Source: a phage. Taken from it: DNA of 64,000 bases. The notes beneath the pieces are model-generated. The model did not search any database. It was not told where the DNA came from and saw nothing but the letters and a program-made list of their open reading frames with translations. This document shows, piece by piece, positions 10,737-43,444 of the stretch; positions within the stretch are counted from its first letter, which is position 1, and every line of letters begins with the position of its first letter. The position numbers and the translations under genes were made by a program. Location: sequence record PZ452583.1; one strand, 5' to 3'.

Positions 10737-10777
10737 AATAAACCCTTACCTTAAATAGATAAGGGTATTTATTATTT

Positions 10778-17410: not shown

Positions 17411-17938
17411 TTATGCGAGTACCGTCTTTAACCGTTCTTCAAACTTCCGAAGAGTATTCTGGCGTTCAGCTCTTTGCTTTTTGTAAGTTTCAATACGCTC
17501 TGAAATGAGAGTGTATCGTTCATTTACTGATTCTTTCATAAAATCAGGAATTTCACGAGAAGCTTTAATCTCGTCAAATTTATCAATAACAGCTTGCTCT
17601 TCAGCAATTAAGTTATCATACATCAAAATATCTTTCTTGATGAACTCAATATCTTCTTGAGTTACACGAGATAATTTAGATGCTTTATCCTTTTTGTACT
17701 GTTCGTTAGTATCACGAGACCAGTGTAATGTACGATTTTTATTCGTATTCTTGTAAATTTCTACAATACCAATCTCATCGATAATAACGATCCAATTCCA
17801 ACGGGATTTGTAAATTTGTCCTCCATCAACCGTGATTTCACCACCGATTGAGACATCATTAAAGAACTTGCTTTGAGCTTCAGATTTAAATTTACCATCA
17901 TTGTAGTTTACCAAGTTGAAAATATCTTTAGCATTCAT
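17411..17938 (-). CDS. Hypothetical protein with C-terminal helical tail, 175 aa
   Basis: ORF-track 5' end is promoter read-through; ATG 17938 with SD GGAGG just downstream of early promoter. Confidence 0.6.
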   Translation of the reverse strand: MNAKDIFNLVNYNDGKFKSEAQSKFFNDVSIGGEITVDGGQIYKSRWNWIVIIDEIGIVEIYKNTNKNRTLHWSRDTNEQYKKDKASKLSRVTQEDIEFIKKDILMYDNLIAEEQAVIDKFDEIKASREIPDFMKESVNERYTLISERIETYKKQRAERQNTLRKFEERLKTVLA

Positions 17939-17966
17939 TTTCTGTTCCTCCGTAGTTGATAGTTGT

Positions 17967-17996
17967 ATAATACCACAGAGGAACAGTCTTGTAAAC
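17967..17996 (-). promoter_or_regulatory. T4-type early promoter (GTTTAC, 18 bp, TATTAT) inside a hairpin whose 3' arm is the downstream SD
   Basis: 9-bp inverted repeat CTGTTCCTC (17942-17950) / GAGGAACAG (17978-17986) brackets the -10. Confidence 0.65.
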
Positions 17997-19405: not shown

Positions 19406-19435
19406 ATAGTACCATAAAGCTTTATGCTTGTAAAC
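19406..19435 (-). promoter_or_regulatory. T4-type early promoter (GTTTAC, 18 bp, TACTAT)
   Basis: Read on minus strand immediately after terminator 19466..19483. Confidence 0.6.
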
Positions 19436-19465
19436 AACTTTGTGAAAAATTTTTGAAATAAAAAA

Positions 19466-19483
19466 GGGAGCCCGAAGGCTCCC
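19466..19483 (-). terminator. Rho-independent terminator (GGGAGCC-UUCG-GGCUCCC then UUUUUAUUU)
   Basis: 7-bp GC stem and U-run read in sequence just after the stop of ORF 19486..20499. Confidence 0.7.
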
Positions 19484-19485
19484 TA

Positions 19486-22321: not shown

Positions 22322-22349
22322 TCTCTTCTCCTTGACAGTTGACAAGATT

Positions 22350-22379
22350 ACTATACCATAACCTTGCCAACTTGTAAAC
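22350..22379 (-). promoter_or_regulatory. T4-type early promoter (GTTTAC, 18 bp, TATAGT)
   Basis: Read on minus strand. Confidence 0.55.
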
Positions 22380-23133: not shown

Positions 23134-23161
23134 GATGTTCTCCTCTTTATCCGATGGTTGT

Positions 23162-23191
23162 ATAGTATCACAGCTCAAATGGAAAGTAAAC
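23162..23191 (-). promoter_or_regulatory. T4-type early promoter (GTTTAC, 18 bp, TACTAT)
   Basis: Read on minus strand directly after terminator 23202..23223. Confidence 0.6.
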
Positions 23192-23201
23192 CGGTAAAAT
23201 G

Positions 23202-23223
23202 AAAAAAGTCTCCCGAAGGAGAC
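23202..23223 (-). terminator. Rho-independent terminator (GUCUCC-UUCG-GGAGAC then UUUUUU)
   Basis: 6-bp GC stem and U6 run read after the stop of ORF 23229..23615. Confidence 0.7.
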
Positions 23224-23228
23224 TAACG

Positions 23229-23615: not shown

Positions 23616-23905
23616 TCAGTCTCCAATTTAATGTTCATAATTCTAGCGTATGATTGTGCCATCTCCGCGCATCGCTCTATACATTCAAAATCAGAAGAGC
23701 ACGGGTCATTTTTATAGGTCGTTCTCATAAAACTATAGAATTGTTCAGACGATTCTACGCTTTTATTTTCAAAAAGCATATAAACGTGCCTAATACCAGA
23801 TTCCATAAATTTATCAAAATGAGGATCGACATTCGCTTCAATCGATGGAGATAAAACAAATGACAATCCTAGCATGGCAAATAGTGCCGTTGCTTTTAAG
23901 GCCAT
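23612..23905 (-). CDS. rI: Lysis-inhibition regulator RI (periplasmic antiholin-binding protein)
   Basis: 97 aa, MALKATALFAMLGLSFVLSPSIEANVDPHFDKFMESGIRHVYMLF...; matches T4 RI as recalled; signal-anchor N-terminus. Confidence 0.9.
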   Translation of the reverse strand: MALKATALFAMLGLSFVLSPSIEANVDPHFDKFMESGIRHVYMLFENKSVESSEQFYSFMRTTYKNDPCSSDFECIERCAEMAQSYARIMNIKLETE

Positions 23906-23917
23906 AAAGGCCTCCTA

Positions 23918-26868: not shown

Positions 26869-27330
26869 TCATTGAGTTTTAATTACTGCTTTAGAAGCCT
26901 TTCCTGGTAAACGACGACTGTTGATAATTGCCATCCTGCATTGAAGTGACGGGTTTTTGAACTTCTCATTAGGCTTACAAACCGTAAATCCAAGCCAAAG
27001 ATTTCCATCTGTGATTTCTAAACGTCCAGGACGATATTCAACCCCATCAATAAAATCCTCGTCAATGTCAGGACGCGGAGGCATACTCAGGAATTCATTA
27101 ACTTCTAAAACATGGTCTTTTATTTTATGGAATAATTCAAAAACATATGTCTCATCAATCTCCCGTTGAATTGCACGATCAAGAAGATGCTGAGAATATT
27201 TTAGATGAAACGATGAGACCCCTGCTGCTTTTGATGCCTCACGAATCTCATTGTTAATTTGACGAAACTCCGACTCAAAGTGACGACGAAGCTTATTTCG
27301 ACGGATAAAAACTTCTGTATTGATAGTCAT
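26869..27330 (-). CDS. regB: RegB site-specific endoribonuclease
   Basis: 153 aa, MTINTEVFIRRNKLRRHFESEFRQINNEIREASKAAG...; matches T4 RegB as recalled. Confidence 0.92.
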   Translation of the reverse strand: MTINTEVFIRRNKLRRHFESEFRQINNEIREASKAAGVSSFHLKYSQHLLDRAIQREIDETYVFELFHKIKDHVLEVNEFLSMPPRPDIDEDFIDGVEYRPGRLEITDGNLWLGFTVCKPNEKFKNPSLQCRMAIINSRRLPGKASKAVIKTQ

Positions 27331-27338
27331 GTTATTCT

Positions 27339-27377
27339 CCTCTTAACTGATAGAAAAATTATACCACAGTCAAGAGG
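27339..27377 (-). promoter_or_regulatory. regB: Hairpin enclosing the regB early promoter -10; its 3' arm contains the regB SD (AAGAGGAG)
   Basis: Arms CCTCTTGACTG / CAGTTAAGAGG pair at 11 positions including one G-U; loop carries TATAAT. Confidence 0.6.
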
Positions 27378-27387
27378 AAAAGTAAAC
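27358..27387 (-). promoter_or_regulatory. T4-type early promoter for regB (GTTTAC, 18 bp, TATAAT)
   Basis: Read on minus strand 28 bp upstream of regB ATG. Confidence 0.65.
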
Positions 27388-29518: not shown

Positions 29519-29992
29519 TTATTTGAACGATTTAACGTACTGAATAGAACCCTTACTATTCACAAAGGCAATTTTACCATTTTTATTATACATGGTAGCA
29601 GTACGCTGATAACCATAGGTTTGTTTACCAGATTGATAACCAACTAATGCAAAATTATCTTCACCCATTTTATTCTGTTTAGCGCGAATGCGTTCATGAC
29701 CATGTGCCATAAGAACCTTAGCATCACCAGTTGCAATGGATCGACGAGTTTTTTCATCTTCAACTGTATTAACAAAGTCGTCAAATGAATCAAATTTAGC
29801 ATGAGATTTATTATACAGTTTTCCATCTACTGCATAATTATATCCTTGTACATCCATCTCAACTTCTGTACCATCATCCAATACAGCAGTGATTTTTTGA
29901 CCTTTTTTAAATTTCAAAAGATCAGTAAAAGATTCAGCAATAATTTGAGAATTAATAGCTGCTTCAGTAATAAATTCTTGATATGTTTTCAT
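29519..29992 (-). CDS. Internal-protein-like capsid-packaged protein, 157 aa
   Basis: N-terminus MKTYQEFITEA is the T4 IP capsid-targeting sequence with a gp21-protease-type cleavage motif; 9 bp downstream of denV. Confidence 0.7.
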   Translation of the reverse strand: MKTYQEFITEAAINSQIIAESFTDLLKFKKGQKITAVLDDGTEVEMDVQGYNYAVDGKLYNKSHAKFDSFDDFVNTVEDEKTRRSIATGDAKVLMAHGHERIRAKQNKMGEDNFALVGYQSGKQTYGYQRTATMYNKNGKIAFVNSKGSIQYVKSFK

Positions 29993-30001
29993 GGGTTTCC
30001 T

Positions 30002-30418
30002 TTAAATGTAAATATTTTTACCGTAATACTTATACCAATGTGGTTTCATTAAAATTTTTTCATCAAGTCGTTGTTGACTCAATTTAATAGCTGATTTGCA
30101 TGGATTATAATCATTTTTCCATTCTACTGGAATATCGCTGATGTCAGGAACTTCAGTATCTTTTATACTGAACCCGCGTTTTAAGCATTCCGTTATAATG
30201 TCTAATTGACGCTTTCGCAAAAATTCTAACTTATCGTAAAAGAACGTAACATGACCAGAACCTAAAATAAACTCGGAAGATATTTTAAAATCTTTAACGC
30301 GCTTACCGTTTGCCACATGCTTACGAACTATACCAAAAACACGCGGCAATTCACGGTATTCTGCGATTAAATGTTGATCAGCAAGTTCAGATACTAAAGT
30401 CAAATTAATACGAGTCAT
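30002..30418 (-). CDS. denV: Endonuclease V (pyrimidine-dimer DNA glycosylase), diverged from T4
   Basis: 138 aa; [29 protein letters not shown]... matches T4 DenV N-terminus, C-terminal half diverged. Confidence 0.9.
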
Positions 30419-30443
30419 TTTATCCCTCCAATTAACTGTGAAT

Positions 30444-30473
30444 ATACTATCACAATTCTAGGAGAAAGTAAAC
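30444..30473 (-). promoter_or_regulatory. T4-type early promoter upstream of denV (GTTTAC, 18 bp, TAGTAT)
   Basis: Read on minus strand; -10 flanked by TGTGA / TCACA inverted repeat. Confidence 0.55.
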
Positions 30474-30477
30474 AACT

Positions 30478-31446
<969 letters not shown>

Positions 31447-33892: not shown

Positions 33893-33966
33893 AGCATTTC
33901 CTTTAGTTAATTAAGGGTTTTATAATCCGTGGGAGTATTATACTCTACTCCCAAGAGTTTGTAAAC

Positions 33967-34299: not shown

Positions 34300-34355
34300 A
34301 ATGTTCTCCTCAAAGTTATAGGCTCATAATATCTCAATCATGAGCCTGTGTAAAC

Positions 34356-36089: not shown

Positions 36090-36165
36090 TGGTCGAGGCA
36101 GTAGGGATCGAACCTACGACCTAGGACTTAGAAGGTCCTTGCTCTTCCTTCTGAGCTATGCCCCG
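36090..36165 (-). tRNA. tRNA-Arg (anticodon TCT)
   Basis: Hand-folded cloverleaf, 76 nt, CCA encoded; anticodon loop CTTCTAA; T-loop GGTTCGATCC. Confidence 0.85.
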
Positions 36166-36169
36166 TAAT

Positions 36170-36245
36170 TGGGGTGACCGATGGGAGTCGAACCCATGAC
36201 TACGAGAATCACAATCTCGAGTTCTACCAACTGAACTACGGCCAC
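36170..36245 (-). tRNA. tRNA-His (anticodon GTG); no encoded G(-1)
   Basis: Hand-folded cloverleaf, 76 nt; anticodon loop TTGTGAT; CCA encoded. Confidence 0.8.
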
Positions 36246-36359
36246 ATTAATATCTACTCCAACAATCATGATGTCTTCACACGAAATTAAGAGAAGAGTG
36301 ATCAGTTAAACCCTTATAATCGCGTCAAGTAGATATTAATGTGACAGTTGTCACAAATT

Positions 36360-36434
36360 TGGCGGACGTGATAGGATTCGAACCTATAACCAATCGCTTA
36401 ACAGGCGATCGCTCTGCCATTGAGCTACACATCC
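36360..36434 (-). tRNA. tRNA-Asn (anticodon GTT)
   Basis: Hand-folded cloverleaf, 75 nt; anticodon loop CTGTTAA; CCA encoded. Confidence 0.8.
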
Positions 36435-36438
36435 AAAT

Positions 36439-36525
36439 TGGTGGGGAGTGGTGGAGTCGAACCACCCGAGTCGCAATGACAATGAATTTACAGTCCACAC
36501 CGCTACCTCTACGGGATAACTCCCC
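36439..36525 (-). tRNA. tRNA-Tyr (anticodon GTA), long variable arm
   Basis: 87 nt; acceptor GGGGAGT/ACTCCCC; anticodon loop CTGTAAA; CCA encoded. Confidence 0.75.
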
Positions 36526-36537
36526 TAATTCATAATT

Positions 36538-36612
36538 TGGTGGCCCTGGGTGGAATTGAACCACCATCTGGCGATTATGAGTCGCTTGCTTGAACCTTCC
36601 AGCTACAGGGCC
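36538..36612 (-). tRNA. tRNA with anticodon CAT (elongator Met, or Ile if lysidine-modified as in T4 tRNA-Ile)
   Basis: 75 nt; acceptor GGCCCTG/CAGGGCC; anticodon loop CTCATAA; CCA encoded. Confidence 0.75.
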
Positions 36613-36613
36613 T

Positions 36614-36689
36614 TGGTGCTGATTGACGGAATCGAACCGCCGACCTTCTCATTACAAGTGAGTTGCTCTACCTACTGAGCTAAATCAGC
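36614..36689 (-). tRNA. tRNA-Thr (anticodon TGT)
   Basis: 76 nt; anticodon loop CTTGTAA; CCA encoded. Confidence 0.85.
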
Positions 36690-36694
36690 AAAAC

Positions 36695-36784
36695 TGGCGG
36701 AGGCGATAGGATTTGAACCTATGAGTCGCCGGAGCGACTGCCGGTTTTCAAGACCGGTGCATTAAACCACTCTGCCACGCCTCC
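36695..36784 (-). tRNA. tRNA-Ser (anticodon TGA), long variable arm
   Basis: 90 nt; anticodon stem-loop CCGGT-CTTGAAA-ACCGG; CCA encoded. Confidence 0.85.
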
Positions 36785-36786
36785 AG

Positions 36787-36860
36787 TCTCCATACAAGGA
36801 TTTGAACCTTGGACCTCCTGATCCCAAATCAGGCGCTCTACCAAACTGAGCTACACGGAG
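36787..36860 (-). tRNA. tRNA-Pro (anticodon TGG); 3' CCA not encoded, 2 nt from tRNA-Ser
   Basis: 74 nt; anticodon loop TTTGGGA; Pro-Ser dimeric arrangement as in T4. Confidence 0.8.
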
Positions 36861-36870
36861 TAAATTAAAT

Positions 36871-36944
<74 letters not shown>

Positions 36945-36949
36945 AAATT

Positions 36950-37036
36950 TGGTGCGAGAAGTGGGACTCGAACCCACAAGGAAATCATTCCGCAGCATTT
37001 TAAGTGCTGTGCCTTTACCAATTTGACCATTCTCGC
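36950..37036 (-). tRNA. tRNA-Leu (anticodon TAA), long variable arm
   Basis: 87 nt; anticodon stem-loop CAGCA-CTTAAAA-TGCTG; CCA encoded. Confidence 0.85.
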
Positions 37037-40709: not shown

Positions 40710-41434
40710 TATAGTACCTTTAGTGTATTTTTAATTTTAGAAAAAAGTTCTTCAAGAGAACCATCGTTTGTAATTACTAAATCGCCATCACGAATTGGCA
40801 ATCCAGCTTCTGTAATATGTGTATCATTGGATTTTTGACCAGGACGAACTACATGAATTACTGTAGCACCCATCGCCCTAGCCGCATCCATTTCATGATC
40901 TTGACGAGTATCAGGAACGATATAATAATCATAACCTGAGTTAAATTTATCAAGATAATCTAAAGCAAATAATTTTACCCAGTACATGCGGTCGAAGTTA
41001 TTAACAATCAAATCCGTACCTAGGGCTTGCATCAGACGACGGACTGACCATTGATCTTCAATATTATTTATAACGTCAATAATCTTGTTAAATGCTACGG
41101 AATTAACTGATTCTTGTCCTTCGTCATCAAAAACAAACACACCTTTAATCGGGCTTTTACCATTAAGATAGCAAAATGCTTGTTCCATAATCGTGATTAC
41201 TTCTAATTTAGTCAGATTTAAATTAGTCTCACGATCATAGTCAATTCCTTCAAACTCTTTACGAGTTAAGCAAGGATAGTCAGTGTTTGCTGCAAATACT
41301 CCCCATGCATAAGCCAATGCATCCTTAATAGGACCAGCAAGTTGGTATTTAACTGCAGAATAATTGCTCATGATAAAATCAGCAGTAGTATCTTTTCCAC
41401 TACGCTTTACACCGCTTAAAAAGATTAGTTTCAT
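40709..41434 (-). CDS. 1: Deoxynucleoside monophosphate kinase gp1
   Basis: 241 aa from ATG 41434 (MKLIFLSGVKRSGKDT...); P-loop; ORF-track 5' extension removed. Confidence 0.92.
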
Positions 41435-41483
41435 GTGTTTCTCCTCAAATTTAATTAAGATTATAACACACAAAACTGAAGCA

Positions 41484-42014
41484 TTAAACTTCTGCTATAA
41501 TTTTTCCATCTTTTTCTACTTGAAAATAGGTGTAAGGAATCGTTGCAGTACATACTAAAGCCGGGTCTGAATCTTCCGTATAGCTAAATTCTACTTCAGA
41601 TAGGTCAGAAACCCAAGGCTTATAAAAATTTATTGACATCACGATTTCAGTTTTGCTATTATCTAAGATGTAAAGCGTAATGTACTCAGGACCTGTTTTT
41701 TGGGCAGTATTTTCACCTGTAAGATAGTTGCTAGTTCCTAGCATCCATTCATACATTCCTATCCACGACTTAAGTTCTTCATCAACTATAAATCTCACAA
41801 TGAGTGGATCATACTCAAATGTAACACCTGGACGTTGTGCTCGACCCAGTCCAAACGGCCCAGTCACGGTATCAGTAACAGGTATTCTAATTCCTGGAAT
41901 AGGAACTGACTGAGCATTTAAAGTAAAAGCAGATGTAGTATTACTATGTGGTATTGATACTACAAAGTTAGTTGTATTTGCTTGGTTAAAAATTTGTTGC
42001 AGAGCTTGCGACAT
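41484..42014 (-). CDS. 3: Tail completion / sheath stabiliser gp3
   Basis: 176 aa from ATG 42014 (MSQALQQIFNQANTTNFVV...); position between genes 1 and 2. Confidence 0.85.
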   Translation of the reverse strand: MSQALQQIFNQANTTNFVVSIPHSNTTSAFTLNAQSVPIPGIRIPVTDTVTGPFGLGRAQRPGVTFEYDPLIVRFIVDEELKSWIGMYEWMLGTSNYLTGENTAQKTGPEYITLYILDNSKTEIVMSINFYKPWVSDLSEVEFSYTEDSDPALVCTATIPYTYFQVEKDGKIIAEV

Positions 42015-43397: not shown

Positions 43398-43408
43398 TGG
43401 ATTCTCCT

Positions 43409-43416
43409 TATAAATA
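43409..43416 (+). promoter_or_regulatory. Late promoter TATAAATA for gene 53
   Basis: Exact TATAAATA 29 nt upstream of the gene 53 ATG. Confidence 0.65.
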
Positions 43417-43423
43417 GATAATA

Positions 43424-43431
43424 TATTTATA
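43424..43431 (-). promoter_or_regulatory. Late promoter TATAAATA for gene 4 (divergent from the gene 53 promoter)
   Basis: Exact TATAAATA on minus strand 27 nt upstream of the gene 4 ATG. Confidence 0.65.
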
Positions 43432-43444
43432 AACAGGAGGGCCC

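Follow-up and report, generated by a model that had tools for sequence, protein, structure and literature searches.

The early-to-middle switch of T4 is shaped by RegB, a toxic RNase under tight control. The enzyme cuts the SD of its own mRNA, which restricts the synthesis of RegB to a short pulse, and the regB promoter was described in a 2010 review as a typical early promoter. It has been reported that RNA structure inhibits RegB and that some structured sites are cut in vivo, possibly on nascent RNA. A second type of control acts on the ribosome-binding site (RBS): promoter-dependent occlusion of the RBS has been published for e (lysozyme), soc, 49, I-TevI/II/III and segB, as well as for Aeh1 mobE. 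The late promoter of the lysozyme gene sits, according to a review, in the region encoding the 5' strand of the hairpin, and a 100-fold translational effect has been reported for this hairpin. One review states that the genes so regulated "are all late genes". Additionally, promoter-early stem-loop (PeSL) cassettes have been described in T4-type phages (Arbiol 2010; Comeau 2014). The PeSL stems were interpreted as terminators or attenuators and as recombination sites, and those of PST and T4 were drawn just upstream of the promoter.

We analyzed a window of 64,000 nucleotides of phage DNA (sequence record PZ452583.1), which is a segment of a Tequatrovirus (T4-like) genome with all of the genes concerned on the minus strand. 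Over 1 kb around the regB site the sequence identity is 100% to Escherichia phage vB_Eco_EH2 and 99.6% to phage AR1, where the matching region is annotated as regB with the flanking genes vs.1 and vs.3/vs.4, and the T4 reference shows an identical gene order in the regB neighbourhood. The ORF starting at 17938 is T4 nrdC.8. The e-denV region is a known variable internal-protein locus; denV adjoins e directly in the window (30002-30972), whereas T4 places ipIII and ipII between e and denV. A 157-aa ORF follows denV (29519-29992), and Ip4 is annotated at the matching place in AR1. The coding sequence of e contains, in its 3' part, a strong match to a sigma-70-like promoter whose -10 is extended (GTTAAC-N18-TATAAT; 30553-30582, minus strand); the denV promoter follows about 110 nt further downstream. 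At the gathering score, Rfam matched only nine tRNAs in the whole window, clustered at 36093-37036 (minus strand), and no Rfam family was matched at the regB, nrdC.8 or denV hairpins.

A preliminary description of this DNA claimed that early promoters are embedded in hairpins whose 3' arm is the downstream RBS, with examples at regB (27339-27387) and at 17942-17986, the nrdC.8 leader. Both hairpins were confirmed, as the arms pair in the way that was described and folding gives z values of about -3.8. The layout is also borne out at the two genes: the promoter spacer holds the 5' arm, the loop carries the -10 and the SD is part of the 3' arm. The coordinates of these and the related features are collected in Table 1. 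The regB leader reads GTTTAC-ttttCCTCTTGACTGtgg-TATAAT-ttttctatCAGTTAAGAGGagaataac-ATG on the minus strand, and its stem reaches approximately 18 pairs (27381-27364 with 27353-27335). The read-through RNA of regB (91 nt) has an MFE of -24.0 kcal/mol (z = -3.79) and none of 200 shuffles was as good; the stem of nrdC.8 reaches 15 pairs, and its read-through RNA (85 nt) has an MFE of -23.7 kcal/mol (z = -3.85) with 2 of 200 shuffles as good. The stabilities predicted for the early-promoter hairpins are at least equal to that of the e hairpin. The regB, nrdC.8 and denV leaders have no TATAAATA late box, and their promoters are of the sigma-70 early type.

Table 1. Positions of the promoter, hairpin and gene features in the window (predicted starts are those expected from promoter spacing)
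Feature	Sequence	Position	Strand	Remarks
regB coding sequence		26869..27330	-	153 aa; ATG 27330
vs.3 stop codon		27390..27392	-	2 nt before regB -35
regB early promoter -35	GTTTAC	27387-27382	-	18-nt spacer to -10; consensus match
regB core 5' arm	CCTCTTGACTG	27377-27367	-	within promoter spacer
regB core 3' arm	CAGTTAAGAGG	27349-27339	-	11 pairs with 5' arm, one G-U
regB extended 5' arm	UUUUCCUCUUGACUGUGG	27364..27381	-	equals promoter spacer; present only in read-through RNA
regB extended 3' arm	CUAUCAGUUAAGAGGAGAA	27335..27353	-	contains SD and the GGAG targeted by RegB
regB -10	TATAAT	27363-27358	-	in hairpin loop; predicted start, A at 27351
nrdC.8 early promoter -35	GTTTAC	17991..17996	-	18-nt spacer to -10; consensus match; -35/-10 signals annotated in T4 deposit U76612
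nrdC.8 core arms	CTGTTCCTC / GAGGAACAG	17986-17978 / 17950-17942	-	flank TATTAT
nrdC.8 extended 5' arm	CUGUUCCUCUGUGGU	17972..17986	-	in promoter spacer
nrdC.8 extended 3' arm	ACUACGGAGGAACAG	17942..17956	-	contains SD; ATG 17938
nrdC.8 -10	TATTAT	17972-17967	-	predicted start 17960
denV cassette		30419..30473	-	-35 30473-30468; ATG 30418; predicted start 30437
denV outer arm	UUUCUCC	30467-30461	-	pairs with SD GGAGGGA 30429-30423
denV inner hairpin		30457-30450 with 30441-30434	-	spans -10 TAGTAT 30449-30444
gene 1 (dNMP kinase) promoter region		41427..41489	-	spacer arm 41477-41465 pairs with 41439-41427, including AUG
e (lysozyme) hairpin		30968..31008	-	5' arm 31008-30992 overlaps first TATAAATA box; 3' arm 30983-30968 contains SD and AUG

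The design is nested at denV, where the outer arm directly follows the -35 and pairs with the SD and an inner hairpin lies over the -10. Gene 1 is a weaker, fourth case of moderate strength. The SDs of all four genes include GGAG. At regB, nrdC.8 and denV the stop codon of the upstream gene precedes the -35 by 2-4 nt, so that ribosomes translating the upstream gene would halt before reaching the stem.

Since at regB and nrdC.8 the spacer holds the 5' arm and the 3' arm holds the SD, RNA that reads through from upstream would hide the SD and RNA that is initiated at the promoter cannot. The start sites were predicted from the consensus spacing and a conserved TATCAAC-type motif, and promoter-initiated RNAs were modelled from these positions, 7 nt past the -10. 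Folding of the two kinds of 5' end agrees with what had been proposed for them: the SD is fully paired in the read-through RNA, where the probability that it pairs with sequence preceding the start site is 1.00 at regB and 1.00 at nrdC.8, and it is about 0.9 unpaired in the promoter-initiated RNAs, which fold with only about -1 to -4 kcal/mol (-1.2 for regB and -2.3 for nrdC.8).

No terminator-like hit and no U-tract was found at 27335-27381, 17942-17986 or 30423-30467, and the regB stem is followed by AUAACAUG. The reading of the regB, nrdC.8 and denV hairpins as intrinsic terminators was rejected because of the absent U-tract. Additionally, no minus-strand terminator was found between these hairpins and the co-oriented genes upstream.

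The late genes e and 49 in the window both show the layout that is known from lysozyme. The preliminary description had cited e as a further example with arms ACCTC and GAGGT around two late-promoter boxes, and both the concept and the cited motifs hold (ACCTC 31020-31016, GAGGT 30980-30976, TATAAATA boxes 31006-30999 and 30993-30986). The arms have to be corrected, since the favoured stem differs (Table 1): the ACCUC/GAGGU pairing alone gives -3.6 kcal/mol as compared to -14.9 kcal/mol for the favoured stem, and both use the same SD. The favoured fold matches the lysozyme hairpin of the review because its 5' arm overlaps the first late-promoter box. The gene 49 leader (10742-10766, minus strand) carries the published RBS-sequestering hairpin, ACCCUUAUC/GGUAAGGGU plus AAUAAAUA/UUUAUUAUG. 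An inverted repeat that is common to the divergent late genes 4 (minus strand) and 53 (plus strand) was also observed at 43398-43444, with a TATAAATA box in each arm and both SDs forming the base of the stem (CUCCUUAUAAAUA...UAUUUAUAAacAGGAG).

The frequency of the design was examined by calculating the best duplex of positions -62..-23 with the RBS (-16..+6) at 108 heuristic gene starts, and promoters were listed with the T4-early-type pattern GTTTAC-N17-19-TAnnnT. The duplex energies have a mean of -7.75 ± 3.49 kcal/mol. The strongest is that of nrdC.8 (rank 1 of 108, -21.5 kcal/mol), regB is third (-16.0 kcal/mol) and denV is sixth (-13.9 kcal/mol), directly followed by gene 49, a published case that serves as a positive control (rank 7, -13.7 kcal/mol). 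Gene 1, where the spacer pairs with the AUG, holds rank 18 (-10.7 kcal/mol). An "ORF" at 36498 with rank 2 was disregarded as false, as it is inside the tRNA cluster. The 15 promoter-proximal genes did not differ as a class from the other 93 (median -6.7 vs -7.1 kcal/mol, Mann-Whitney p = 0.53), and duplexes of -14 kcal/mol or stronger were not significantly enriched among them (2 of 15 vs 3 of 93, Fisher p = 0.14). The mean base-pair probability over -14..+3 likewise showed no difference between the promoter-proximal genes and the others; the duplex energy gave the same answer at the level of the class but revealed the outliers. The suggestion that the design is a general rule was therefore not borne out: three strong cases (regB, nrdC.8 and denV) and one moderate case (gene 1) are found among the 15 promoter-proximal genes. 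The early-promoter RBS hairpin is a feature of a few genes, at 3-4 of 15 promoters, and most early promoters in the window do not have one.

Other arrangements occur at the remaining promoters. At the promoters at 34355, 33966 and 22379 a hairpin spans the -10 and the SD is outside of the stem. These are strong early-type promoters inside stable PeSL-like hairpins (34310-34355, 33920-33966 and 22330-22379, minus strand), the stems being AGGCUCAUGA/UAUGAGCCU, GGGAGUA/UACUCCC and a 15-bp stem that ends 1 nt before the SD, respectively. A real terminator just upstream and a free SD are found at nrdC.10 (terminator 19484-19465) and mobD.5 (terminator 23224-23207), which suggests that a terminator followed by a promoter with a free SD is an alternative means to insulate a gene from upstream transcription. 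These terminator-then-early-promoter units (19406-19484 and about 23160-23224, minus strand) match terminator and promoter features that are annotated in the T4 deposit U76612. A short G+C-rich hairpin (AGGCCuuuAUGGCCU) was also observed at the start of rI (23893-23915, minus strand), with the AUG in or at the stem right after the SD GGAGG.

The regB hairpin is conserved in diverged phages. An alignment-seeded scan for regB returned 52 loci with 34 distinct leaders, and the hairpin persists across the 34 leaders with at least a dozen different arm sequences. Relatives of RegB keep the hairpin with different arms, CUCCUCUAGUUG/CAACUAGAGGAG at 77% identity and CUCCUGUAAGUUGUG/CACUUACAGGAG at 68% identity, and it is likewise kept in CF-SP2 and Cronus. 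CC31 and JD18 have a nested form in which the outer SD stem is weak, and in VR25, fHe-Yen9-01 and Muldoon the 5' arm consists of the -10 region plus spacer and the 3' arm of the SD plus AUG. The 3' arm takes in the SD or AUG in about 30 of the 34 leaders, even where the 5' arm shifts to the -10 region. Nearly all leaders with their own early promoter are predicted to have a sequestered RBS in read-through RNA (0.44-0.99 over -14..+3), and the RBS of the corresponding promoter-initiated leaders is 0.6-0.9 unpaired. One exception (L063/L065) has a hairpin over the -10 with the SD outside. Neither promoter nor hairpin is found in ECD7, PSTRCR_127 and L074-76, where regB abuts the upstream gene, and avDM2, which has a terminator upstream of regB, has no SD hairpin.

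MAFFT aligned the regB arms in shifting registers, and for this reason a register-free swap test and a count of pairs in an ungapped family were used. When the arms of 16 regB arm families were permuted (an earlier version of the test used 11 lineages), native partners averaged -17.7 kcal/mol and permuted partners -11.66 ± 0.69 kcal/mol (z = -8.8), and none of 100,000 permutations reached the native value. The native partner was the best in both directions in 11 of the 16 families. In every one of the 16 families the SD or AUG is paired by DNA from before the start site, although the sequences and even the geometries differ. Neutral drift from a shared ancestor would degrade native and chimeric pairs equally, so the advantage of the native arms points to selection for complementarity. 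Judged from these leader sequences, the arms of the regB hairpin co-evolve.

The nrdC.8 hairpin is found in Dhakavirus-type phages with the arms UCUCCAGUAG/CUACUGGAGG; in Mosigvirus it is the -10 that the main stem spans, and the SD is reached by a weaker outer stem only. The T4 reference carries an SD-sequestering leader at all three genes, with the regB and nrdC.8 hairpins as in the window and a denV leader that differs from that of the window and still sequesters the SD (UCUCCUGUAG/CUACAGGAGA). This leader of denV in T4 is almost the same as the one at regB in the L050 group and as the Dhakavirus nrdC.8 leader. A near-identical cassette of 49 nt precedes regB, nrdC.8 and denV within single genomes (L083, L086 and L088-L090, which are Dhakavirus-like contigs of IMG/VR) and is also present upstream of T4 denV (L001:6854-6925), and an exact-pattern scan found 13 copies on six Dhakavirus-like contigs, with regB, nrdC.8 and denV as the downstream genes. 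The cassettes that sequester the SDs of these genes in the window are unrelated in sequence to the Dhakavirus-like one.

All of the 80 stem cells of the ungapped cassette family pair. Double changes occur at two pairs (U-A to A-U and G-C to C-G), one U-A pair changes to U-G, and six loop positions adjoining the stem vary freely. The observed values were reached in 8 of 500 shuffles, and registers that were slid showed no double changes. A compensatory swap from U-A to A-U is seen in the copies at nrdC.8. The repetition of the 49-nt cassette at three unlinked genes points to exchange or gene conversion between their regulatory cassettes, and because whole cassettes move, some of the "compensatory" differences between lineages may be co-inherited and not independent events. 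The architecture is thus tied to particular genes across genera, with a cassette sequence that is exchangeable or homogenised between them.

We consider it fairly probable that the regB, nrdC.8 and denV hairpins are promoter-embedded translational insulators against read-through transcripts. The spacer of a sigma-70-type early promoter, or the -10 region in some lineages, is complementary to the gene's own SD and/or AUG. RNA polymerase arriving from upstream would copy both arms, 20-30 nt apart, and the resulting hairpin of 10-18 bp would block the binding of the 30S subunit. When transcription starts at the embedded promoter, approximately 7 nt after the -10 and at the beginning of the 3' arm, no hairpin would form and the mRNA would be translated. 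Translation would in this way be tied to the brief activity of the gene's own immediate-early promoter, and read-through would still transcribe the genes downstream. The hairpin would also stop translation from abundant late transcripts at denV, which follows e, and at gene 1, which follows the late genes 4-2-3. It would likewise hide the GGAG of read-through RNA from RegB, and since RegB is inhibited by secondary structure the hairpin should also protect this RNA. The start sites are inferred, and so is the view that read-through RNA exists and is poorly translated.

The same structures could be taken for PeSL-type modules in which the stem-loop mainly attenuates or terminates upstream transcription and offers homology for the shuffling of cassettes, with the SD in the stem merely as a handy purine-rich partner. 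Described PeSL stems overlap the -10 or occupy the interval from -35 to -10, one of them acted as a strong terminator in a reporter, and the class has been extended to the PST/T4 pair. The presence of the cassette at three loci per genome and the three -10-spanning hairpins that omit the SD are also in line with this reading. We regard it as unlikely, as the regB, nrdC.8 and denV hairpins show no U-tract or terminator-like score, whereas real terminators do precede the nrdC.10 and mobD.5 promoters, and the 3' arm of regB stays with the SD or AUG although the 5' arm moves. Complementarity of the arms is, moreover, not needed for homologous recombination. A stem that attenuates without a U-tract would escape a prediction of this kind.

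It has also to be considered whether the main task of the hairpin is to keep RegB, and secondary cleavage by RNase E/G, away from the leader of polycistronic read-through RNA and from its GGAG, so that the message for the downstream genes is stabilised and the translation block is a side effect. GGAG is present in the four SDs, and RegB cleaves the SD of its own message and is impeded by structure. The RegB resistance that is reported for denV RNA is attributed to a missing A-rich 3' element, independent of structure, and in VR25, fHe-Yen9-01 and Muldoon the AUG is paired to the same degree as the GGAG. As the main function such protection is quite unlikely; it is compatible with translational insulation and no exclusive alternative to it.

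An element that works in double-stranded or extruded DNA, for example in promoter opening or protein binding, would account for an inverted repeat that is centred on the -10 and for stems that are mostly Watson-Crick. The sense and antisense strands of the regB leaders fold equally well (Wilcoxon p = 0.67), which is compatible with a DNA element and is itself uninformative on whether the constraint is on RNA or DNA. The T4-type regB stem, however, has G-U pairs (sense -23.1 vs antisense -14.0), and the 3' arm is anchored on the SD or AUG, which is meaningful only in mRNA, even when the geometry changes. No need of T4 early promoters for such repeats has been described, and most early promoters in the window do without them, so that a DNA-level function is very improbable. 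An accidental complementarity of pyrimidine-rich spacers in promoters with purine-rich SDs, in favour of which it could be said that a minority of early promoters is affected and that the anti-SD core is short, is already effectively refuted by the z values at both sites, by the ranks of 1 and 3 of 108, by the swap test, by the compensatory pairs and by the recurrence of the same three genes across genera.

If translational insulation is the function, the hairpin would add a third layer of control of regB beside promoter shut-off and self-cleavage, and some of the PeSL cassettes would gain a functional reading. The arrangement, with its promoter set into the RBS hairpin, also suggests a compact and portable design for the insulation of genes in dense operons. 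More tentatively, it is possible that promoter, RBS hairpin and SD together form a self-contained and mobile "translational insulator" cassette that is kept at regB, nrdC.8, denV and perhaps gene 1 and is homogenised by recombination. Many so-called PeSL terminators would then act on translation and not on transcription, and T-even phages would be able to shield an immediate-early gene from upstream transcription in two interchangeable ways, by a terminator with a promoter behind it or by a promoter set into an RBS hairpin.

No account of the regB, nrdC.8 or denV hairpins was found in the accessible literature, and older papers may hold one. The autoregulation of RegB acts on the identical GGAG of the regB SD and likewise limits the synthesis of RegB to a short pulse. 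That control is a cut in trans by a nuclease on a free SD, whereas the hairpin would act in cis, on RNA initiated upstream only, and would protect the GGAG. The hairpins resemble PeSL cassettes in that both are composite intergenic modules, made up of an AT-rich stretch, a promoter of the early type, a stem-loop that overlaps the -10 or occupies the interval from -35 to -10, and then the SD and ATG, and in that both are repeated within genomes and linked to the exchange of cassettes, which the regB/nrdC.8/denV cassette fits. In the PeSL descriptions, however, the 3' arm is not identified with the SD and the stem-loop is given no part in translation, and the hairpins here are without terminator features. 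As in the occlusion known from e, the SD or AUG is in the 3' arm, the hairpin would form only in RNA started upstream, and the mRNA of the internal promoter would lack the 5' arm. The published cases of this occlusion use gp55 late promoters (TATAAATA), whereas regB, nrdC.8 and denV are early genes with sigma-70 early promoters. The e-type hairpin delays expression until late in infection, and the early-promoter form would instead confine translation to the immediate-early burst and insulate it from read-through. The design at regB, nrdC.8 and denV is thus probably an extension of the known lysozyme-type RBS occlusion from late to early promoters, which overlaps with the described PeSL cassettes.
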